From: an uncultured Chloroflexia bacterium
Lineage (GTDB): Bacteria; Chloroflexota; Limnocylindria; Limnocylindrales; CSP1-4
DNA length: 64,000 nucleotides
Assembly (NCBI GenBank): GCA_963781705.1
Contig: CAWAGP010000001.1
Location: forward strand, 135,406 to 199,405
Direction: 5' to 3'
The notes under the pieces were generated by a model, which did no database searches, was not told the origin of the DNA, and saw only the letters and a program-made list of their open reading frames with translations. Shown here in pieces: positions 16,241 through 64,000 of the stretch. The first letter of the stretch is position 1, and the number at the start of each line of letters is the position of its first letter. The position numbers and the translations under genes were made by a program.

Positions 16241-16307
16241 CGGCGCAGAGTAGCGTCCGGCGCGCGGCGCTACCACGCCGGCGCCAAATGGGCGACTATT
16301 GGTGGCG

Positions 16308-17468
16308 ATGACATCTGAGAACCCCACCCGACCCGGTGCCGCCGATCTGATTCGTTCGCTCGGCCTGATGGTCGACGGTCCGGTGGCATGGGGGCGCCCC
16401 ATTGCCAGCCGCGCACCGGGCATCTTCATCGTTGAGCTGTCCGAACCGGCCCAGCAGGCGCCGATCGACCACACCGCCTTGCGCCACTGGCTCGAGCGCG
16501 TGCCGGAGCTCACTGTCGATGGGGAGAGCCCGGACGCCACCATCCTGTGGCACCGCCTGGCCGAGTTCTGGCTGCCGGACGAGCCGGTCGTGTTCATCGG
16601 CCGCTCGTCGCGCTCGATCGGCCAGCGGTTGGCCGCGGTCTACAAGACGCCCCTCGGCGATGCCCGGCCGTCATCGCTCGGCTACTGGCTGAAGACCCTG
16701 ACGGTGCTGCCGAACACACGCACCTGGTGGGCCGATACGGAAGCACACGAGGAATACGAGGACGCCCTGCTCGACGAGATCGCGGCGCGCAACGACGGCC
16801 AACTGCCGTTCGCCAACCTTTCCTCCGCGTCGCGCGGCATGCGCGCCCACGGCCTGGCTAATGCCCTGCGCGACCCTCGAGATATGCCCGCCCGGCCAGC
16901 ATCGGGGCAGTCGGTCAGCGGCCCAACGCGACGAGCTCCGGCAGTGCGCCGGCCACGCCGTCCGGCTACCACGTCCACGCCCCGCTCATCAAAAGCCGGC
17001 AAGCCACCGCCCGAGCCCACCTTCCTGTCGGCGGAAGGCGTCGATCGGCTGACGGCCGAATTGGAAGAGCTGCGCAACAACGTTCGGCCGCTGGTCATCG
17101 CGCGGGTCAAGGCCGCGCGCGAGCTGGGCGACCTGCGCGAGAACGGCGACTATGAATACGCGCGCAAGGAGCAATCCTTCGTGGAGGGGCGCATCCAGAC
17201 GATCGAGGCGCTGCTGCGCTCCACCCAGGTCATCGATACGTCCATCAGCACCGACACGGTGCGCATGGGCTCGACGGTCGAGATCGAGAGTGATGGCCAC
17301 GTCCAGGTTTACCTGATCGTCGGCTCGAGCGAGGCCGATCCCGCCGCCGGTCGGCTGTCCTATCAGTCGCCGGTGGGCCAGGCATTGCTCGGCGCTCAGG
17401 CGGGCGACAACGTAATGGTCGAGCTGCCCAACGGGCAGCACCGCTATCGAGTCGTCGCCGTCCGCTGA
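16308..17468 (+). CDS. GreA/GreB-domain protein with an approximately 220-aa N-terminal extension of unknown function
   Basis: The C-terminal 160 aa match GreA: the coiled-coil (LTAELEELRNNVRP...LGDLRENGDYEYARKEQ) and the FKBP-like domain (RMGSTVEIE...YQSPVGQALLG). The N-terminal domain has no recognised motif. Confidence 0.7.
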   Translation: MTSENPTRPGAADLIRSLGLMVDGPVAWGRPIASRAPGIFIVELSEPAQQAPIDHTALRHWLERVPELTVDGESPDATILWHRLAEFWLPDEPVVFIGRSSRSIGQRLAAVYKTPLGDARPSSLGYWLKTLTVLPNTRTWWADTEAHEEYEDALLDEIAARNDGQLPFANLSSASRGMRAHGLANALRDPRDMPARPASGQSVSGPTRRAPAVRRPRRPATTSTPRSSKAGKPPPEPTFLSAEGVDRLTAELEELRNNVRPLVIARVKAARELGDLRENGDYEYARKEQSFVEGRIQTIEALLRSTQVIDTSISTDTVRMGSTVEIESDGHVQVYLIVGSSEADPAAGRLSYQSPVGQALLGAQAGDNVMVELPNGQHRYRVVAVR

Positions 17469-18799: not shown

Positions 18800-21397
18800 A
18801 TGACCGATCGTCTGAGCCGGGCGCGTCCTGCCGAATCGGTTCAGACGCCTGCAGCGGCCGTGTCCCACGGCGCGGCGCCCGGCGGGACCTCCAACGGCGA
18901 CGGGGCACCGGAGCGGCACGCGTCCGCAAAATTGGCCGAAAATCTGCGCGTGCTCGGCCACTTGAGCGCCGAAGCCGTAGAGCAGATGCCGCTCGGCTTC
19001 GTGACCCTCGATGCCGACCTGCACGTCACCTTCGCCAACGCGGTAGCCCTTGAACTGCTCGGCATGGGTGAGGCCGAACTCGTTGGTCGACGCCCCTGGG
19101 ACCTGTTCCCACAGATCGTCGGGACGCGTTACCAGACGATCAGGGTTTCCGCACCGGTCGTCGTTGAGTACGAAGAGCAGATTGGTAACCGCGAACGGTG
19201 GGTCGGGGTCCTCGCCTGCCCGACACAGGCGGGGACGGCGGTCTTCCTGCGCGACATCACCGACAGGAAACGCGACCAGGAGACGGTCAGGCGCCTGGTG
19301 GCCCTCCTGCACGGCTCACTCGACGCGATGCTCGACGCCTTTCTGGTCTGCGCCGCGGTGCGCGACGATGACGGTCTGATTGTCGACTTCAAGGTCGAGT
19401 TCGCGAACAGCGTAGCCGGCGAGTTCCTTGGCCGCGCTCCCGACTCCCTGATCGGCGAGCTCATGCCAGAATGGGCACCTGTCCTAACCGGCGAGTCGTT
19501 CCTCGACGCGTGCCGAACGGTGGTCGAGACCGGGGAGCCTCGCACCGAGGAGAGCGCCGCCTACACGCTGACGGCCCGCGAAGGCATGCGCGTGAGTTCG
19601 AGCGGAAGGATCACAGTCCAGCTCCTTCGTTACAACGATGGGTTCTTCGCGACCTGGCGCGACGTTACAGAGCGGGACGCGGTGCGCCGCGAGCGCGAGC
19701 TACTGGCGGCGGTGCTCGAGCAGATGATCGACGGAGTGGTCATCATCGACGCGGCGGGCACGTTGACTTACGCGAATCCCGCGTTCCTGACGGGCGCCGG
19801 CCTGACCCCCAGGGACGCGATCGGCCAGCCGGCTGCCGACGTCGCGGGTGCACTCTTCGGGGCCCGCGCCTTCGCCCTGTTGGAGGAGGCAGCAGTGGCA
19901 GGTCGGCCGTGGCTCCAATCATTGGAACAGCCGGGCGCGGACGGCGGCCCTCGCCATCTCGAGATCAGCATGACGCCCGTGCGCGACGCTGATGCGAACG
20001 TCACCAGCTACGTCGTCTTGACCCGCGACGTCACGCAACTGCACGAAGCGGAGGCTGAACTGGCTCTGCAGGTCAGCGTGCGGACAGCGCTCAACGAGAG
20101 CGTCCACATGATCCCGTCCGAAGCGTCGCTGGAGGAGGCGGCCCAGGCGATCTGCGACGCGCTGGTCACGCTGCCGTTCGTCGGCATGGCGGCAATCCAG
20201 ATCTTCCTCGGGAGCGACCACGTGCAGATCCTCGCCCAGAGCGCCCCGCCCGGATACCCCAAGATGGCGGGCACCTACCTGACTCCGGGCACCGCGGCGC
20301 TGGTGCGCGAGCGTTCGGCGGGTGGTCCATGGGCCCGCTACGCCGAGGGCGACCCCGCCGACGGTGGATTACGGGACCTGGCCGTCCAGAGAGGCCTCAA
20401 GGCCCTCGCCTACGGGCCCATCTGGCGCGGCGATCACGTCGATGGGACGGTTGTCATCGGTACATTCGACGAGACGGTTGCCCGGATGGTCGTCGAGAAA
20501 ATGCCGGGTATCGTCTCGTTCGGCGCCACCTCGAGCGCGCTGCTGGCGGAGCGGATGCACTCGAGACATCGCCAGGCCGAGCTGCGCGATTCGCTGACCG
20601 CCGTGCTCGAAACGCACGCCTACCACCCGGTCTTTCAGGCGATCGTCGACCTCGATTCGAGTGAGGCCGTGGGCTATGAGGCGCTCACCCGCTTCGACTC
20701 GGGTCAGCCCCCGGACCTGTGTTTCGGCGACGCATGGGCCGTCGGCCTGGGGCCGGCATTCGAGTTCGCGACCCTCGAAGCGGCGGTGGCGGCCTCGCGG
20801 GGCCTGCCACCGGGTGCGTGGCTCGACCTCAATGTCACCCCGCGGCTACTCGTCGATGTCGGCCGACTCGGCGCCATCCTGCGGCAGGCAGAGCGACCGG
20901 TCGTGCTCGAGATCACCGAGCACGAGATAATCCAGGACTACGAGGTCGTGAGCGAGGCAATCCGCTCGCTGGGCAGGGACATCCGTGTCGCCGTTGACGA
21001 CGCAGGCGCCGGAGTCGCCAACTTCGGCCACATCATCGATATGCGACCGGACTTCGTGAAGCTCGATATCAGCCTCGTCCGGCGAGTCAACTCGAACCTG
21101 GGACGCCAGGCGATGGTGGTCGGCATGCGCCACTTCGCGCGCACCGCCGGCTGCCGCCTCGTGGCCGAGGGGATCGAGACTCTTGCCGAGGCCAGGACGC
21201 TGCGCGGCCTGGGCGTCGAATTCGGGCAGGGCTACCTGTTCGGCAAACCCGCCACGATCGACATGCTCGGCCAGGAAGAGATCGCCGCTCGAAAGAAAGC
21301 TGGACCGTTGCGACCAGTGCGAGTCAGTAGGGCCAGCTCCAGCCAGAAATCTCCGCAGCATCCTCGCCAAACTCGCGGGCATGCATCGACGCGGTGA
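18800..21397 (+). CDS. Multi-PAS/GAF sensor protein with C-terminal EAL (c-di-GMP phosphodiesterase) domain
   Basis: Repeated PAS-like segments. EAL motifs are EALTRF, DDAGAG and EGIET, ending [10 protein letters not shown] 18800 is preferred over TTG 18773. The 3' tail overlaps xfp by 74 nt in convergent orientation. Confidence 0.75.
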
Positions 21398-50645: not shown

Positions 50646-50921
50646 GAGGCGGGTGGACCGGCGCGAGACGGCGCGAAACGGCTGGCCGCTTCCGCGCCTG
50701 CCAAGTGCACTCGGACGCATTTCGCTGCAAACGACGCTGATATCCGACCGTCGAGCGGATCTCGGCTGCATACGAGGCCGTTGAGGGTCGTTTCTTGAGG
50801 TTTGTCGGCTGAATCCCGTGAAAGCTCCGACCACCAGTCGGAATCCGCGCCGGTGCCCGCTATTGCCCGCCATTTGCCAGTGTCGCGACACTGCGTATCA
50901 GGGGAAGCGATCGGAGGACGA

Positions 50922-51578
50922 ATGGATGGCGCGCTGATCGAGCGGGCTCGGGCGGGCGACGCCGCGGCCCTCGATCAGATCGCGCGCGAAGCGATCGACT
51001 CGGTCTACCGCACGGCGGTCGGCATTCTGGGCAGCCCGGCCGAGGCGCGCGACGCGACACACGACGCGCTGATCTCCGCCCGCCGCTCGCTGCGGTCACT
51101 GGGCGAGGTCGGCCGCTTCGACACCTGGCTGCAGCGCATCACCGTCTACGCTGCGAAATCGGTCGCGCGCAACCGCCGGGGAGTTCGTGAGATCGCCGTC
51201 GCGCCGGCCGAACAGTCCGCCGGCTCCGGCCCCCCGAATGCGATCAGCGCGACCGACTTCGATCGGGCCTTCGAGCAGCTGACCATCGACCAGCGCGCCC
51301 AGCTGCTCGATTACGACCTTGGCGGAGGATCGGCTGCTGAGTCGGGCCCGCAATCCGCCCGCAGGGCGTTCGACCAGCGGCTGCGCCAGCTCGTAACGAC
51401 GAACAGGCTCGACGACGCCGAACTCGAGCGTCACCTCGCCCGACGCACCACGGCCACCATGACGCCCAACCAGCGTGAGGCGCTGCTCGTCGCGATCAGC
51501 GCCAACCGGGGTCGCGGCTGGCGTCGAACCGTCAGGCTGGCGGCGTCTGGCTCGCGCCCGTTGTGGCGGCAGTCGTGA
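50922..51578 (+). CDS. ECF sigma factor (copy 1), read in frame into an anti-sigma N-terminal segment
   Basis: ATG with SD GGAGGA. Sigma regions 2 and 4 are present. There is no stop where copy 2 has its ATGA sigma/anti-sigma junction. Confidence 0.65.
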   Translation: MDGALIERARAGDAAALDQIAREAIDSVYRTAVGILGSPAEARDATHDALISARRSLRSLGEVGRFDTWLQRITVYAAKSVARNRRGVREIAVAPAEQSAGSGPPNAISATDFDRAFEQLTIDQRAQLLDYDLGGGSAAESGPQSARRAFDQRLRQLVTTNRLDDAELERHLARRTTATMTPNQREALLVAISANRGRGWRRTVRLAASGSRPLWRQS

Positions 51579-52895
51579 TCGCCGTGGCGGTCGCGCCGAC
51601 GCTGCTGGGTGGACAGCAACCGTCCGCGTCGCCGGCCAACCTCGCCACCGGGTCGGCCATACCCGCCGGCCAGGAAGTGGCGACAAATGCGCCCGGTCCG
51701 TCAACAAGCGCCGGGTCGATCGTGACCTCGAGCACGGCGGCTCAGCCGGACGTCTACTCGGCGCAGCAGTTGGCGGCCATGATCGGCGACGCTGCCTGGG
51801 TCGGCCACTACGTCATCGCCCGGGCGCAACTCGCCTACATGCGGGCTCCACCGGTGGGACCGAATTGCTCGCCGCCGTACCCGTGCTACGTCGCAGTACT
51901 GGCCGGCGTCTCCGGCAACAACCTGCGTCACCGTTGGCTGGCGCGACGCGCCGGTCGGCCAGGGCATCCAGATCGTCGACCACGGCGAGCGCTGGGTGCA
52001 GCAACTGACCGTTCCCGCGGAACCCGGCCAGTACGCCTTCAAGGTCGCGACCGATTCAGTTGAGTACCTGGGCCCGGCACGCCTCGCCGCCGGCAGTGCG
52101 TGGGCCGTCCCGGATGCGCTGTCGTACACGCCCCAGCTCCCGAGCGACGACGTGTACGCGGTGAGTGGCTGGCTGGTCGGCACGTCACCCGCTCCGTGCG
52201 CCGGTCCGGCCGTGCCGCCGGAGGCGAACACCGACTACTGGTGCGGCGGCTCATGGCTGACCCAGGACGCCGAATCCACCGTGACCGCCACCGGCTCGCC
52301 CATCCTGCGCCAGCTCGACGGCCTGCCCTGCAGTGGGAGGCGTATCCCGACTTCGCAGCGAATCCGGTCACCAACGGGCCGGGCGGAGCGGAACCCAGGC
52401 AGGCCACCTACCTTGTCCGCCCGGCCGGCTGCCCGACGTTCGTGATGGCGCGAGTGCCCGGTGTGGCGAATGGTCGGCCGGCTCGACCAGTACGTGGTGC
52501 CCTCCCCGGCCGACGCGTACCCCGCCCAATTGGGCGGCGAACCGGTGCTGACGCCCGATCAGGCTCGCTCGCAGGCGATGACCAGCGCTTCGGCGACACC
52601 GTTCCTGGTCGGCGGTTGGGCGTCGTATGCAGTGCCCGAACTCTGCCCGCCTGATCCCGGCTTTCCCGACACGCCACTGCTCCAGAAGTGCGACGACGGT
52701 TACCGGCTCTACGGCTCGGCGGCAACCAGCGCGGACGACCCCGGCGTACCGCTGGCAGCGTCGGACATCGTCATCCCGTTGGCGCGCCCCATCGTGCTGC
52801 GCGTCCACAGCCACGATCCTGGCGCCACCGGGTGCCCAGCCGATTACGACGCCGCGTGCAGCGCGGCCATCGTGGTCGACGCCGTCGCCTGGTGA
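51563..52895 (+). pseudogene. Anti-sigma TM plus large extracytoplasmic repeat protein (copy 1), split across four reading frames
   Basis: The homologous segments appear in successive frames (starts 51563, about 51920, about 52325, 52461). Each aligns to the intact copy-2 protein (VEYLGP..., YWCGG, YLVRPAGC, WRMVGRLD, and a C-terminal Cys-containing domain). Confidence 0.55.
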
Positions 52896-52994
52896 CGCTC
52901 CCCAAGGACGAGAATCGGGACCGCCATCGGGGCGAATGAACCAAACCGTTCCACCGCGCATCTTGATTCATGGGAAGCGGAGATCGGAGGGTGA

Positions 52995-53508
52995 ATGGAC
53001 GGCGAGCTCGTCGAGCGTGCTCGGGCGGGTGATGCCGACGCCTTCGATCAGCTGGCCCGCGCGAGGATCGATGCGGTGTACCGGACGGCGATCGGCATCC
53101 TGGGCAACAGCGCCGACGCGCGCGACGCGACACAGGAAGCGCTCGTCTCCGCCTGGCGCTCGCTGCACTCGCTGCGCGACGTCGAGCACTTCGACGCGTG
53201 GCTGCATCGGATAACCGTCAACGCCGCGAGGATGGTCGCCCGCCGCCGGCGCGTGCGCGAAATCCCGATGACCGCCGACCTCGAGCAGGCCGACCTCGAC
53301 CCGGGTGCCGTCAGCTCCGGCCGACTTCGACGCCGCCTTCGACCGACTGTCCGTCGACCAGCGCGCCCTGCTCCTCGCCCACCACCTTGACGGAGAGTCG
53401 GTGGCCGACCTGGCCGTCCGACTCGGCATCCCCGAAGGCACGGTCAAGTCCCGGCTGCACACCGCCCGCCAGGCATTGGATAGAGCGCTGCCCGAGGGCG
53501 AGCGATGA
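52995..53508 (+). pseudogene. ECF sigma factor (copy 2), apparent single frameshift near 53301-53320
   Basis: Regions 2/3 are in frame A (52995-about 53304). Region 4 is in frame B (53305-53508, ...DFDAAFDRLSVDQRALLL...). By comparison with copy 1 it would be one continuous protein. Confidence 0.6.
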
Positions 53509-55717
53509 GCCCGATCTCCGACCAGGAGCTCCAGCGCCACCTCACCCGCCGGACGACGAAGACCATGCCTGCCGCCGATCGCGAGGATGTCCTCGCCGCC
53601 GTCGCCGGCGCGCGTGCTCGGCCGCGCTTCTCGTTCCGCATACGCCCGAGCCTCCTGCTGGCACCGATCGCCGCGCTCGTGCTGGTCGTCCTCGTCGCCG
53701 TGCCGCTGCTCTGGACGCTTGCCCCCGGGCCCGGCCCGTCGCCATCGCCGTCTGCGATCACGATCTACTCCGCGCAGGAGCTCGTCGAGCCTCGCCCGCG
53801 AACCCGGCTTCAGCGGCACCGTCATCGCCCGCGTCACTCTGGATCCACCGTTCCCCCTCCCGAGCGAGCCGGAGCCTTGCCCGGCACCAGAGGTATGTGA
53901 CTCGCAGCAGTCGATCGGACAATACTCAACGGAAATCTGGACCGGTTGGCGGGATGCGCCGGAAGGCGAAGGAACACAGCTGCCCGTCGGGGCAGTGGGT
54001 TACCCGTGTCCTCGCCGCCCTCCTTCCGGCAGGCGCGCTCGGCGCATACCGCGTGAGTGGTGGTCGCGTCGAGTACCTAGGCCCGGCATACCTGTCGCCG
54101 AGCGGCTCATCGATGACGGTCGAGGCGGCAAAGTCATCAGCGCCCTCGGATCCGGTAGACGACGTGTACGTCGTCTCCGGCTGGCTTGGCGAGGCGGTGC
54201 CCAGCGGATGCCCCCCTCCCGCCGTCGGGTCTTGCGACGGTTCGTTCCTGACAAGGGACAGGGAGTTCCCGCTCACAACGGAGGGCAACAACACCACCGC
54301 CAACTATCCAGTCGGTCCCGCGTTGCGTCTTCAGTCCGGCGCGTACAGTGACTTCGCCGCCTCGACCGGCAGCGACGAGCACGGCGCCATCCCAAGCTAC
54401 GGCACCTATCTCGTTCGGCCCGCCGGCTGTTCCACTCGCGTCACCGGCAGCGACGCCTGTCGCTGGACAATGGTCGGCCGGCTCGACGAGGCCCCGGCCA
54501 GCCCGACGCCATCGCCATCGCCCTTGCCGACGGCATCCGTCTCGCCATTGGATGTGCTGACGCAGGACCAGTTGATCGCGATGGCGACCGACCCGGCAGC
54601 GGCTGGTCGGCTCGTTGTCGCGGAGGCGCAGCTGGCGCCGGTGCCCGTCCCGAGCGCGAGCCAGCCGTGCGATCCACCCGACCCGTGCTATGCCGGGCAG
54701 ATCGGAGTGAACCCGGGCGTCGTCGTCTACTCGGGCTGGCGCGATTCGACCACCGTCGGTGCCGGCACCTACTACCGGCCGGAGCAGCGGTGGCTTGTCC
54801 GTCTCGAGCCACCACCAGTTTCCGAGCCACAGCTGATGGCGTTCCGGATCGGACGGGGCACGGTCGAGTATCTCGGCGACGCGCAGGAGGTCGATGGCTC
54901 GTTCGTCTGGTCGGTCGACGATCTCGCGGCGCAGGACAGTCCGCTGCCGGACGAGGTCTACGCAGTCGACGGTTGGCTCGTGCAGTCGATCATCGCCGAG
55001 TGCCCAGCACCGAACGGCTACTCGTCGACCAGCGATATGAATTACTGGTGCGGCGGTACGTTCCTTACGCAGCAAGAGACCCAACCGCCGCAGACGCATG
55101 GCGTGTTCGATCTCGGGGGCATCCACGTGCAATGGGGCGCTTACCGGGAGTTCGCACCCGACCCAACCTCCAACAGCGGCCAAGGAACCTCACCCAGACA
55201 CGGCATCTACCTGGTCCGCGTGGTTGGCGAGCGGAACACGAACAGCGGCCAGTCGCAGGTATGGCGCCTCGTCGGCCGGCTCGATCCGCCGATGGCTGCG
55301 CCAGCCCCGAACCCGACGCCGTCGCCCACACCCTCCGAGCCCTCGGAGATCGCCGGCCAGCCGGTTCTCTCTACCGACGAGGCACAGCAGCAGATCCACG
55401 CCGGCTACGCTGGCGGCCTGCTGATTGCCGGCCAGGTCGCCTTCACACAGGCCGATTGCTTCCCGCCGGCCGACTTCCCGAATACGCCACTGCTCGCAGC
55501 CTGCGGCGACGGCTACCACCTACTCGGCATCAATGGCAGCCAGACCACGATTCGGCTGGCGATCATCAACTTCTCGGGTGAGCTGCCCACCGGAGCATCT
55601 GTCGTCGTGAGCGTGCATACACACGATCCCCTGGCTGCTCAATGCCCGGAGAAGTACACCGAGGCCTGCCAGCAGGCGGTAGTGCTGGACGATGTGGCGT
55701 GGTCGCAATCGACTTGA
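53505..55717 (+). CDS. Anti-sigma factor (copy 2) with a 600-aa extracytoplasmic domain built from an internally duplicated D1-R unit plus a C-terminal Cys-containing domain; two apparent frameshifts in its first 500 nt
   Basis: ATGA overlap with the sigma gene. Cytoplasmic ELQRHLTRRTT. TM helix LLLAPIAALVLVVLVAVPLLW. The frame changes near about 53780 and about 54000, then is continuous to 55717. Confidence 0.55.
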
Positions 55718-57372: not shown

Positions 57373-58435
57373 TCAGGGCTGGATTACCGGCGCGTTGGCC
57401 TTGTCGGACAGCCACTCCTGGGTGATCTGGGCCAGCGTCCCGTCAAAGTGCATCGCCGAGAGGGTCTGGTTGATGCAGCTCGTGAGCGGGCTGCCCTGCT
57501 GCAGGACCAGGCTGAAGTACTCCTGCCCGTCGCCGGCGGCCGGGAACTGGCCGACGATGACGCCGTTGTCCATCTGCGCGGCGGTGATGTAGAAGGCCGT
57601 CGGCAGGTCGACCACGATGCCGTCGATCTGATCGGCGTTGAGGGCCGAGATGGCGGCGTCATTGGTGTCGTAGACGCTCGGTGCGCTCGTCGGCTGGATG
57701 ACGTCCGTGATGTACGTGTAGCTCGTCGTCCCGACCTGGGCGCCCAGCCGATAGCCCTGCAGTTCGGCCATGGTCGTCGCGCTGGTGATCGGCGTGCCCG
57801 CGTTGGCCACGAGAGCCTGGTTGACGACGTAGTAACCGTTGCTCATGTCGACCTTCGTCGCACGCTTGGCGGTGTACGAGATCTGGTTGATGTCGAAGTC
57901 GAACTGCTTGTCGCCGGGTGCGTACGAGCTGCTGAAGGGCACGTACATCCAGGCAACCTGGTCGGCGGTGAAGCCCAGCTCGGTCGCCACCTGGTACGCC
58001 ACCGCGCTCTCGAAGCCGCGCCCGTTGGTGGGATCGCCCAGCGACCACGGCTGGCTGCCGTTGATCGGCGTGCTGGCGGTCTCGCTGTCAGTCGGCGGAT
58101 CGAAGTAGGGCGGGTAGGCGGGATCGTCCGTGCCGATGGTCAGCTGACCGGCCGTCTTGACCGGCAGGCCGGCAATGGGTCCGCAGATGCCACCAACCGG
58201 TGTCGGCTCGACCGTCGGCGTCGCCGTCGGCCCAACGGTGGGCACTTCGGTGGGCGTGGCCTCGGCTGTCATCGATGGCGCCGGAGTAGGTGTCGGCGCG
58301 ACTGTCGCGTGCCGGCGTCGGCGCGACGGTCGGTGAAACCGAAGCGAGCGGGGACTCGGTCGCGGCAGGCGTGCTCGAACACGCGGCCAACACCAGGCTC
58401 ACGACCAACAGCGAAAACGCCCTGTGGACCTTCAT
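57373..58435 (-). pseudogene. Amino-acid ABC substrate-binding lipoprotein, apparent frameshift within the Pro/Thr linker (about 58283-58340)
   Basis: The signal peptide plus lipobox (MKVHRAFSLLVVSLVLAACSS; SD GGGAGGAG) is in one frame. The mature SBP domain is in another. The junction has two 25-nt-spaced near-copies of GTCGCGCCGAC. Confidence 0.55.
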
Positions 58436-58886: not shown

Positions 58887-59444
58887 CTAGACCTCCTTGA
58901 ACTGCTCGAACGGCTGCCGGCAAGCCGTGCAGTGGTAGATCGCGCGACACAGCGTCGGCCCGAAGGCATTTTCGAGCGTCGTGTTGCGCGATCCGCAGTA
59001 TGGACATTCAGCCACCGGCAGGAGCGGCAGTGACGTCAGGTCGTTGCCGCCCGGCGCCGTCAGTGGCGGTGGCGCGAAACCGCCCTGGCGCAGCGCGCGG
59101 CGACCGTCGTCGGAGATGCGCGCGCTGGTCCACGGCTCGGCGAAGGAGATCTCGACGCGAACGTCGTCGGCAAACTTCGCCAACCGCTCTGCGACCGCCG
59201 TGCGCATCAACTCGATCGCCGGGCAGCCAACGAACGTGGGCAACAGCTCCACGCGCACGCTCCCCTGCCCCGTCTCGACGCTGCGCACGACGCCCAGGTC
59301 GACCACCGAGATCGTCGGAATCTCAGGGTCGTGCACGTCGTGCAGCGCCGCCCAGACGGCCGACTCGAGCGGCCGCGCCGGCAGCCGCGGTGCTACCACT
59401 CGACGCCCTCCTCCAGCCGCGCGACAGAGGTGAACTCCGTCCAC
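58887..59444 (-). CDS. paaD: Phenylacetate-CoA oxygenase subunit PaaD-like (DUF59/MIP18 domain plus a C-terminal Cys4 zinc ribbon)
   Basis: The motif CPYCGS...CTACRQPFEQFK. In the paaABC context. Confidence 0.65.
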   Translation of the reverse strand: MDGVHLCRAAGGGRRVVAPRLPARPLESAVWAALHDVHDPEIPTISVVDLGVVRSVETGQGSVRVELLPTFVGCPAIELMRTAVAERLAKFADDVRVEISFAEPWTSARISDDGRRALRQGGFAPPPLTAPGGNDLTSLPLLPVAECPYCGSRNTTLENAFGPTLCRAIYHCTACRQPFEQFKEV

Positions 59445-60229
59445 AGCCAGCGGAACGAGTCGGCCGGCGGCGAGTGATCACGACCGTCCGCCGGGGGCGG
59501 CGTATCAGCCAGGGTGGGCAGGCCGAGTGGTTCCAGGACGGCATTCGCCTGCGCCCGCCAGCCGTCGGCCAGCGCGGCCATGGGCGCCGCGAGGATCGCC
59601 GCCTCGACCAGCAGCTGCTCGCCGTCGAGTGGCGTGAACACCGTCTGGGCCTCCGGCGCAAGGAGCGTGAGCGCGGACTCGAGTCGGTCGCGCGGCTCGC
59701 CGGCTGCGCCGGCGAGCCGCCGCAGCCATCCGTCGAGATGCATCAGGTGATAGCGCTCCTCGCGCCGCACTTTGGCCACGACCTCGGCGAGCGGCTTGAA
59801 GGCTGCGGTCGCGAGCGCGGCCAGGCGCGCCGAATCGGCCGTGTCGTACAGCCAGCGGCGGGCGATCGAGAATGCCCAGTCTGTGCGCGGATGGTCGAGC
59901 AGGCGAGCGTGGCGGAACTGCTCGGGCTCGCGCTGGAAGGCCAGCCGGTCGGCCAATTCGCCGGTCAGCTGGGCGAGCATCTCGTACCAGATGCGGGCGT
60001 GGCCGATCTCGTCCTGGGCCAGCGAACTGAAGGCGACATCCTCCTCGAGCATCGGCGCGATGCCGGTCCACTCGGAGTCCCAGAAACCGACCACGAACTC
60101 GTCGTCGGCCATGGTCAGCAGTAAGCCAGTCAGCGCGTCACGCGTGTTCGGATCGAGCGTCCGGCGGTCGAAGGTGGGTACGTCGGGCTGGATCAACTGG
60201 CGCGTCGGCAGCCGAGCCTCGGCGTTCAC
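59393..60229 (-). CDS. paaC: Phenylacetate-CoA oxygenase subunit PaaC-like
   Basis: A ferritin-like region (FWDSEW...DEIGHARIWYEML). The real start is probably internal. The annotated extent overlaps paaB by 92 nt. Confidence 0.6.
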   Translation of the reverse strand: MNAEARLPTRQLIQPDVPTFDRRTLDPNTRDALTGLLLTMADDEFVVGFWDSEWTGIAPMLEEDVAFSSLAQDEIGHARIWYEMLAQLTGELADRLAFQREPEQFRHARLLDHPRTDWAFSIARRWLYDTADSARLAALATAAFKPLAEVVAKVRREERYHLMHLDGWLRRLAGAAGEPRDRLESALTLLAPEAQTVFTPLDGEQLLVEAAILAAPMAALADGWRAQANAVLEPLGLPTLADTPPPADGRDHSPPADSFRWLWTEFTSVARLEEGVEW

Positions 60230-60602
60230 TTCGACGCGCCCGGCGCTTGGCCAGCGCGAGCTTGTCGCGCATCACGTAACCGCCCGGCTTCTTGAAACTG
60301 CGGTCAAGTGGCGGCTGGAGCAGGTCGGGGTCGGACAGGTCGATGATCTGGGTGCGCGGCACGACCCACAGCCGGACGCTCTCCTGGCGGCGGCTGTAGA
60401 ACTCGCGCGCGTAGTGCATGGCCAGTTCGCGGTCGGGCGCGCGCAGGTTGCCGGCGTGGCGCATCGGGTCGCCGTCCTTCTCCTGGCGGAAGACCTCCCA
60501 GACGTCGGGTCGGCGCCGTCGCCCAGTCGGCCGGACTCGTCGCGCCGCCCTTCCGACGGACGCTGCGGCTCGCCGGTCACGCGGCCGCCCCGATCGAGGC
60601 AC
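60138..60602 (-). CDS. paaB: Phenylacetate-CoA oxygenase subunit PaaB-like
   Basis: Core WEVF...HAGNLRAPD...LWVVP resembles PaaB. Both ends are uncertain. Confidence 0.5.
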   Translation of the reverse strand: MPRSGRPRDRRAAASVGRAARRVRPTGRRRRPDVWEVFRQEKDGDPMRHAGNLRAPDRELAMHYAREFYSRRQESVRLWVVPRTQIIDLSDPDLLQPPLDRSFKKPGGYVMRDKLALAKRRARRSERRGSAADAPVDPARRTHLRPPDARSEHA

Positions 60603-62466: not shown

Positions 62467-62559
62467 GGTCAATCGCCCGCGGCTGTCGAATCTGGGCCGG
62501 CCGTTCGTTGTCTTGCTGACGGCGGGCATATCGCCGACCATCGCGCCAGGAGGATCACC

Positions 62560-64000
62560 ATGCGCTACGCACTTCTTATCTACGTCGAGCCGTGGGAGCC
62601 GACACCGGAACAGGACGCCGAGATGAGGGCGGGCTACAACACCTTCGGCACGGAGGCGATGAACGCCGACGTGATGCGCGGCGGCGAGGCGCTCCAGGAC
62701 GCCAACACCGCGACGACCGTGCGCGTGCGCAACGGCCAGGCGCTCGTCACCGACGGACCGTTTGCCGAGACCAAGGAGGAGTTCGGCGGCTTCTACCTGA
62801 TCGAGGCCGCCAACCTCGACGAGGCGATCAAGTGGGCTGCCAAGATCCCCGGCGCAACCCGCGGCTCGGTCGAGATCCGGCCGATCTGGGAGTTCGCCAT
62901 GAGCGCCGATGCCGCCGCCGGCAGAGACGCCCGGCCTCGCCCGGCGTCGGCTGACACGTCACTGGACCTTCGCAATCGGGGTGTCGGGCGCGACGGCCCA
63001 GTCGCGTTCGACGCCGTCGATCGGGTCTTCCGTGAGGAGTCGGGTCGCGTCGTCGCCGGCCTGATCAGGTCAATCGGCGACTTCGACCTGGCCGAGGAGG
63101 CCGTCCAGGACGCCTTCGTCAGCGCGCTCGAGCACTGGCCGGCCGACGGCCTGCCGCCCAATCCCGGAGGCTGGATAGCCACGACCGCGCGACGCAAGGC
63201 AATCGATCGGCTGCGCCGGTCGCAGCGGCTGGCCCACCACCTCGACGCCCTGGCGCGGCTGATGGCCGCAGACGCGGAGGCCAGGTCAGCGCCAGACGAA
63301 CAGCCCGACCCAGCGCTCGTCGACGATGACCGACTGCGCCTGATCTTCACCTGCTGTCACCCGGCGCTGGCACCCGACGCCCAGATCGCGCTGACGCTGC
63401 GGCTGCTCGGCGGCCTGCGCACGCCCGAGATCGCGCGTGCCTTCCTGGTGGCCGAGCCGACGCTGGCACAGCGCCTCGTGCGCGCCAAGCGCAAGATCCG
63501 CGAGGCGGGCATTCCCTATCGCGTGCCGCCGCCCGAGTTGCTCGGCGAGCGCCTCGCCTCCGTGCTGCGGGTCATCTACCTGATCTTCAACGAGGGCTAC
63601 TCAGCGACGGCCGGCGCTGCGCTGGTCAGGCGGGAGTTGGCCTCGGAAGCCATCCGCCTTGCCCGGGTCCTGGCAGAACTGATGCCCGACGAGCCGGAAG
63701 TGGCCGGGCTGCTCGCCCTGCTGCTGCTCCAGGACTCGCGCCGCGAGGCGCGCCAGGCTGACTCAGGCGAGCTGGTGAGGCTGTCGGAGCAGGACCGATC
63801 GCGCTGGGATCGCACCCGCATCGCCGACGGTCTCGCGGCACTGGACAGTGCCGCCGCGCTGGGTGGGCCGGGGCCGTACCAGCTGCAGGCGGCGATTGCC
63901 GCCGAGCATGCCCGTGCTGCCACTGCGGCCGACACGGACTGGCGGCGCATCGTCGCTCTCTACGACCAGCTGCTCGAGCAGATGCCGACGCCCGTCGTCG
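62560..64000 (+). CDS. YciI-like (DGPF) domain continuing in frame into an ECF sigma-70 family factor with a C-terminal extension (3' end outside window)
   Basis: ATG at 62560 with SD GGAGGA. YciI motifs are [19 protein letters not shown]...EIRPIW. There is no stop before the sigma regions ([15 protein letters not shown]..., region 4 [16 protein letters not shown]). The window ends inside the gene. Confidence 0.6.

Follow-up and report, generated by a model that had tools for sequence, protein, structure and literature searches.

Single-base frame breaks in two tandem ECF sigma/anti-sigma modules of a Chloroflexota metagenome assembly: probably consensus errors for the most part

Two tandem modules, each encoding an extracytoplasmic function (ECF) sigma factor and its putative anti-sigma partner, lie on the plus strand at 50.9–55.7 kb of a 64,000-nt window (the whole stretch of DNA analysed here: positions 135,406 to 199,405 of the forward strand of contig CAWAGP010000001.1, GenBank assembly GCA_963781705.1, from an uncultured Chloroflexia bacterium). 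Both modules, copy 1 (50922–52895) and copy 2 (52995–55717), are interrupted by single-base frame shifts. Most or all of these breaks, notably the three in copy 2, are probably consensus errors in a locally error-rich stretch of the metagenome assembly, a reading judged to have a probability of about 0.6. Copy 2 would then be a working gene pair in the organism.

The most important pointer to errors lies outside the modules: two unrelated conserved genes downstream, for an ABC-transporter binding protein (SBP) and for PaaB, carry the same kind of break, so the breaks are not specific to the modules. Moreover, single-base corrections restore full-length conserved open reading frames (ORFs) in copy 1, copy 2, SBP, and PaaB alike, which leans toward local consensus errors for most breaks. 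If they are errors, annotators would miscall a sigma/anti-sigma pair, a transporter binding protein, and PaaB as pseudogenes. The stretch needs re-polishing before any claim of gene loss is made.

Two diverged modules with seven frame breaks

In each unit an ECF sigma gene precedes one that encodes a single-pass membrane protein. Their features, all on the plus strand, are these:

50922–51389, plus strand: copy 1 sigma remnant; sigma-2 present, sigma-4.2 helix-turn-helix deleted, without a stop codon
51408–52895, plus strand: copy 1 anti-sigma-like sensor; read in frames 0/2/0/2/0, ending with TGA at 52893–52895
52937–52963, plus strand: promoter-like motif TGAACC-N14-CGCATCT upstream of copy 2; the sole exact match in the window
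52995–53508, plus strand: copy 2 ECF sigma gene; extra C at 53315, in the sigma2–sigma4 linker
53505–55717, plus strand: copy 2 anti-sigma/sensor gene; extra C at 53786 and extra G at 53986

An earlier note on this DNA had described the units as duplicated in tandem, and the comparison bears this out. A 270-nt direct repeat (50909–51178 versus 52982–53251; spacing 2073) is 78% identical, several shorter ones are in register, and the units start alike, with ...GGGAAGCG(GA)GATCGGAGG..GAATGGAYGGC and the same ribosome-binding stretch. At their N-termini the sigmas share 62% identity in protein and 78% in DNA, and the number of sensor modules differs between the copies. The two modules are true, diverged paralogs.

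A frameshift-aware protein-to-DNA aligner, with the intact homologues P0004, P0010, and L002 run against both copies, identified seven single-base frame shifts, four in copy 1 and three in copy 2. The note had listed seven frame changes and had suggested aligning both copies to intact homologues; the breaks fall near-exactly at its sites. DNA alignment with L002 fixed the copy 2 breaks to the base (53315, 53786, and 53986). Copy 1 has no close relative, and here three of the breaks are located to a few bases and the first to about 34 nt:

51515–51548, plus strand: copy 1 break 1, −1, frame 0 to 2; exact base not resolvable
51921–51927 (about 51925), plus strand: copy 1 break 2, +1, frame 2 to 0; in CTGCGTC, extra base outside any run
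52325–52331, plus strand: copy 1 break 3, −1, frame 0 to 2; inside the conserved GLHVQ motif (CTGCCCTGCAG)
52450–52455 (about 52452), plus strand: copy 1 break 4, +1, frame 2 to 0; in GCGCGAG, just before CPVWRMVGRLD

The corrected frames of both copies contain no in-frame stop codons. Seven frame shifts together with zero nonsense codons count in favour of errors. None of the five +1 sites in the modules has an extra base that matches a neighbour or belongs to a run; the longest homopolymer in the region (6 nt) lies away from every break, and no site has a slippery or repeat tract. Natural 1-nt insertions arise mostly through slippage, which duplicates the neighbouring base, as mutation-accumulation studies have found. 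The inserted bases, being unlike their neighbours, are therefore not products of replication slippage. Insertions outnumber deletions 5:2 in the modules.

The tetramer CGTC occurs within 3 nt of four of the five +1 sites (51925, 53315, 53786, and 53986), and of the PaaB deletion on the other strand, against a background of 11% per strand. The motif was picked post hoc, and the association loses significance once all possible 4-mers are allowed for; it is a curiosity only.

The frame changes might instead be put to biological use, through programmed frameshifting, phase variation, or a functional fusion of sigma-2 and sensor in copy 1. The copy 1 sigma remnant and the anti-sigma N-terminus do share a frame with no stop between them, which confirms the read-through at this junction that the note had described, and the copy 1 sensor module is conserved like intact ones. 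However, the lack of slippery or repeat tracts at any break speaks against such use; seven shifts with zero-frame stops cannot be read through; and the 56 sigma relatives include no fused homologue except one that is itself frame-shifted. This explanation is hardly credible.

Copy 2 as the conserved syntenic module

The syntenic site in four Chloroflexota assemblies (L001, L002, L004, and L005) contains one intact module each, with a molybdopterin oxidoreductase gene on one side and an amino-acid ABC transporter operon on the other. The shared gene order is GSDH (glucose/sorbosone dehydrogenase), VanY, and Oxidored_molyb; then sigma and sensor; then ABC permease, SBP, and Paa, with the ABC transporter and Paa genes on the strand opposite to sigma and sensor. 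The relatives encode a sigma of 170 aa and a sensor of 642–1135 aa. In all four, as in copy 2 (53505–53508), the sigma stop and sensor start overlap as ATGA, and the promoter-like motif TGAACC-N14-CGCATCT is conserved upstream of sigma. Copy 2 is the ortholog of the relatives' single syntenic module, and copy 1 is a second, older paralog inserted upstream of it. One lineage, as the window shows, gained a second copy of the module, the sigma half of which then degenerated.

Across 1547 nt (52976–54522), copy 2 is 92.5% identical to L002 with exactly three gaps, all of them 1-nt insertions in the window. Removal of C 53315, C 53786, and G 53986 yields ORFs of 170 aa (sigma) and 736 aa (sensor). 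The corrected sigma is 93% identical to that of L002. The corrected sensor comprises an N-terminal helix, a transmembrane segment, two extracytoplasmic modules, and a C-terminal domain; the hydrophobic stretch LLLAPIAALVLVVLVAVPLLW follows about 45 cytoplasmic residues of this putative anti-sigma. Pfam identifies Sigma70_r2 (PF04542) in the copy 2 sigma at E 1.7e-12, and the sigma-4/4.2 helix-turn-helix (PF08281/PF04545; Sigma70_r4_2) at E 4.6e-14, the latter only without base 53315.

The corrected copy 2 sigma also retains 73 of the 73 conserved positions, each at least 90% conserved among its 45 closest homologues. Its ratio of nonsynonymous to synonymous divergence (dN/dS, omega) against three relatives is 0.21–0.27, equal to the values among intact genes, and that of the first 339 sensor codons is 0.28. 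Neither nonsense codons nor larger deletions were seen in copy 2. Copy 2 does not appear to be a decaying paralog; it looks flawless except for its three 1-nt insertions. The note had proposed a decaying paralogous module, a description that suits the sigma half of copy 1 but not copy 2, a conserved syntenic ortholog apart from those insertions.

Synonymous divergence of the sigma gene among four genomes (window copy 2, L001, L002, and L004) is low, with dS of 0.14–0.22 versus 0.43–0.59 in flanking genes. Either the sequence itself is constrained or lineages have exchanged the module. Recent import of copy 2 from an L002-like genome was considered and rejected as a general explanation, since the low sigma dS is common to all four genomes.

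Only one block is exceptional in its closeness to L002: 328 nt (53773–54100) that are 99% identical to it, within sequence that is 85–93% identical; locus-flanking genes are 72–82% identical, and within the block itself L001 is unalignable. Recombination may have produced this block, or reads of a related population may have entered the consensus. The block also raises the question whether the tandem arrangement is itself an assembly artefact, in which two haplotypes or related populations were joined and the frame shifts mark the chimeric joins. The three insertions of copy 2 all fall where it is most similar to L002, as might happen if reads of a related population had been recruited. But the modest identity between the copies, nowhere above the values given for the sigma N-termini, and their differing module content argue otherwise. 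The flanking sequence is not duplicated. Copy 1 has no close relative anywhere (its best match is 43% identical in amino acids) and bears deletions of its own, which rules it out as a second haplotype of copy 2. Finally, the low sigma dS is not specific to the window. An artefact of this kind is very unlikely, and the locally misassembled duplication that the note had offered as its other possibility does not fit: the copies are far too different for a collapsed or duplicated haplotype.

A search for an independent assembly of the same organism returned none: at 90% identity each of the two gene calls clusters with nothing but itself, and the exact protein is absent from the contig index. Likewise, an exact 21-mer from the 99% block has no match in JGI metagenomes. 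Protein-pattern scans of genome and metagenome collections returned 3 loci each, too few for estimating a frame-shift frequency in the family.

Similar breaks in neighbouring genes

Two further breaks, missed by the note, lie downstream of the modules:

58302–58315, minus strand: +1 break in the ABC-transporter binding-protein (SBP) gene (57373–58435); non-repeat context GGCACGCG
60498–60511, minus strand: −1 break in PaaB (gene 60138–60580); ACGTC in the window versus ACCGTC in L004

In SBP the break puts the lipoprotein signal peptide (MKVHRAFSLLVVSLVLAAC; ATG 58435) out of frame with the mature SBP_bac_3 domain (ORF 57373–58272); in all four relatives, signal peptide and mature part share one frame. 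As in the modules, the inserted base differs from both of its neighbours. PaaB has a conserved N-terminal leader (PSEGRRDESGRLGDGAD; GTG 60580) that L004 and L005 keep in frame with the core but the window does not. Both genes are unbroken in every relative examined. Counting these two, about 9 kb (about 51.5–60.5 kb) contains nine single-base breaks, spread over five genes with three unrelated functions.

Upstream, ORF tiling and Pfam scans of 36 ORFs detected no frame breaks in about 42 kb of ORF, all of it in complete, unsplit genes, including those for proteins of 785–1143 aa; this bears out the note's remark that nothing comparable occurs in the first 50 kb. Hidden N-terminal shifts in the first 47 kb were also sought by scoring codon usage in intergenic gaps, a method with no power, as it fails on the known SBP case.

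Two other candidate lesions were rejected. A frame shift suspected in the GSDH gene belongs to L004, not to the window: the L004 gene (1137–2309) is shifted near 2033 and acquires an out-of-frame tail rich in Arg, Ser, Thr, and Pro, and the window copy is intact. An in-frame stop at 58887 is simply the boundary of two adjacent genes, PaaD and that for a 121-aa membrane protein.

Consensus errors or recent inactivation

The density of indels within copy 2 provides a further argument for consensus errors. The 328-nt block contains 2 insertions and 2 substitutions relative to L002, an indel:substitution ratio of 1:1, far above the expectation adopted here for neutral decay. The sequence type is also relevant. 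L002 comes from a Nanopore-only project assembled with Flye and one round of Medaka (PMC12313526). Residual indels in long-read metagenome-assembled genomes (Nanopore, Flye/Medaka; PMC12313526, PMC9262707) resemble the breaks described here in being isolated, 1 nt long, and locally clustered, and the sister assembly L004 has one; they differ in that typical errors lie in homopolymers, and the window breaks do not.

Several points weigh against consensus errors. A long-read origin of the assembly is no more than probable, judged only from the 1.05-Mb contig and from related records. Nor are insertions outside homopolymers what any platform typically leaves behind as residual error. Even in this stretch the breaks are unevenly spread, with seven of the nine inside 2.5 kb (51.5–54.0 kb; binomial P about 0.003 for an even spread), so the modules form a hot spot above the local rate. 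Because other evidence already marks copy 1 as a relic, its four frame shifts could well be genuine. Lastly, a homologous ECF sigma on a 2-kb forest-soil metagenome scaffold (L006; 904–1884) is −1 shifted near 1185, in CAGGGGAAGAAA, within the same sigma2–sigma4 linker; its called product has 326 aa, half of them out-of-frame. This may represent real inactivation in this sigma family, though the break there could also be an assembly error.

The same hot spot, the same soil-scaffold sigma, and the degeneracy of the copy 1 sigma regardless of its frame shifts would all fit a serious though unlikely alternative, in which both modules are genuine, recently inactivated pseudogenes whose sigma regulon is no longer needed. 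Copy 1 would have been lost first, through the sigma-4.2 deletion and promoter loss, followed by indels in both copies and in some neighbours. The public gene calls (P0001, 587 aa; P0033, 218 aa) match the broken frames; the breaks are thus present in the deposited sequence. The full set of conserved residues in the copy 2 sigma (73 of 73, at an omega of about 0.2), the lack of nonsense mutations or larger deletions anywhere in copy 2, and the parity of indels and substitutions in the 328-nt block all argue against inactivation. Bacterial pseudogenes are expected to show a deletion bias, whereas the insertions here exceed deletions and are not of the slippage type. SBP and PaaB, in otherwise intact and unrelated operons, would also have to be pseudogenes, and the module is intact and under purifying selection in four relatives.

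Set beside pseudogene decay after duplication in general, the locus presents both likeness and difference. The copy 1 sigma has a raised dN and has lost motifs, promoter, and start/stop signals. By contrast, the copy 1 sensor and all of copy 2 show only 1-nt indels, with no nonsense codons or deletion bias, and the same lesions occur in unrelated neighbouring genes.

A degenerate sigma with a conserved sensor in copy 1

The sigma half of copy 1 appears to be truly decayed, a relic independent of any frame shift. Pfam matches Sigma70_r2 only (E 5.6e-8), with no sigma-4/4.2 match. Compared with the L002 sigma, 13 aa are missing that correspond to the sigma-4.2 recognition helix (GTVKSRL), at a place without a frame shift. 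Just 51 of the 73 conserved residues remain (reference median, 72), and the changes in region 2 include W to R and N to Y. The copy 1 sigma has dN of 0.27–0.30 and omega of 0.37–0.55, and its dS to all others is 0.54–0.73; in the functional outgroup L005, at similar dS, dN is lower by a factor of about 2.5. Upstream of copy 1 (50780–50921), nothing matches TGAACC-N14-CGCATCT within 3 mismatches. Where the relatives have ATGA, copy 1 has ACGA and one extra base, which places sigma and sensor in one frame, and no ATG, GTG, or TTG start for the sensor is present at that position. Lesions of these kinds are not artefacts of single bases.

The copy 1 sensor comprises an N-terminal helix, a transmembrane segment, one extracytoplasmic module of about 260 aa, and a Cys-containing C-terminal domain. 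After frame correction, its module retains 39 of 44 family-conserved residues (the median of 22 intact modules is 40), and GC content at third codon positions (GC3) is 0.83–0.88 in every corrected segment. This conservation and the GC3 values suggest that selection acted on the sensor part until recently, or acts on it still.

If the copy 1 frame shifts are errors, the product would be one membrane-tethered sigma relic of about 655 aa: a sigma-2-like domain without recognition helix, an anti-sigma helix, a transmembrane segment, and the conserved sensor module. Such a protein might act as a decoy or co-sensor beside the copy 2 pair, both relying on a new family of OB-like extracytoplasmic sensor repeats of uncultured bacteria, with Chloroflexota as the identified carriers and 1 to 4 repeats per genome. 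This reading as a whole is rather improbable. ECF41/42 and membrane-anchored ECF52-type sigmas reportedly carry fused C-terminal regulatory extensions. Copy 1 would likewise join a sigma-like domain, anti-sigma helix, transmembrane segment, and sensor in one polypeptide; however, its fusion accompanies deletion of the sigma-4.2 helix and loss of sigma-2 residues, and no homologue shares the architecture. The fusion looks like a by-product of decay rather than a designed one-component sigma.

An ECF module with a repeat-built sensor

The locus is an ordinary ECF module with an uncharacterised sensor. It resembles ECF (group 4) sigma factors with membrane anti-sigmas (sigmaE/RseA, SigW/RsiW, and SigM-type) in three ways: the sigma of about 170 aa has two domains, sigma-2 and sigma-4; the downstream gene overlaps in ATGA, and its product has a large outside domain joined by one transmembrane segment to a short cytoplasmic N-terminus; and the conserved motif upstream is −35/−10-like, suggesting autoregulation. 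It differs from these pairs in two. The corrected copy 2 sigma reaches only the superfamily cut-off, TIGR02937 (76.3 bits versus 42.9), and is below the cut-off of every named equivalog (SigM, SigE, SigW, and others). The partner has no recognisable anti-sigma domain (no Pfam match at E<0.1, and no HxxxCxxC motif in the N-terminus), and its outside part consists of 1–4 uncharacterised modules. The sole NCBIfam match of the membrane protein, a sub-threshold one, is to the CU044_5270 family (19.9 bits versus a cut-off of 100; E 5e-4).

Homologues of the membrane protein number a few dozen among 5.8 billion proteins; most are from metagenomes, none is annotated, and the organism-labelled loci are Chloroflexota. 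A survey covering window copies 1 and 2, L001, L002, L004, L005, and P0002–P0024 shows that the extracytoplasmic part is built of beta-rich repeats of about 260 aa (motifs VEYLGP, VSGWL, YWCGGS, GLHVQ, YLVR, and W/F-R-M/L-V-G-R-L-D). Some of the proteins add a Cys-containing C-terminal domain, and the number of modules varies between close relatives. The modules weakly resemble an OB fold, and periplasmic OB-fold proteins (YgiW/BOF family, NlpE C-domain) count among the nearest known systems.

To judge from the arrangement, the membrane protein would be the cognate anti-sigma, holding the sigma at the membrane until the outside modules sense a signal. The freed sigma would then drive its own promoter, TGAACC-N14-CGCATCT. 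That a conserved ECF module of a soil Chloroflexota clade uses an uncharacterised, repeat-built outside sensor is a modest point, unsurprising to the specialist, as is the second copy with a degenerate sigma in one lineage.

Other reading frames in the window

Three other ORFs, all on the plus strand, have unusual composition. At 18854–21397, a PAS-PAS-EAL protein has a gap of about 180 aa at the place expected for GGDEF, with no GGDEF match at E<1e-4. At 16305–17468 lies an ORF of about 390 aa whose GreA domains (N and C) are confined to the final 150 residues; Pfam matches neither the first 200 nor an Arg/Pro-rich linker. Either the protein has an unusual N-terminal extension, or two genes share the frame. 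At 62554–63999, a YCII domain and an ECF sigma (r2, r4_2, and DUF6596) form one uninterrupted ORF. The junction (62896–62905) reads TTCGCCATGAGC and contains an ATGA typical of a two-gene stop/start overlap, and one base fewer would split the genes: the ORF is either a natural fusion or a tenth single-base error.

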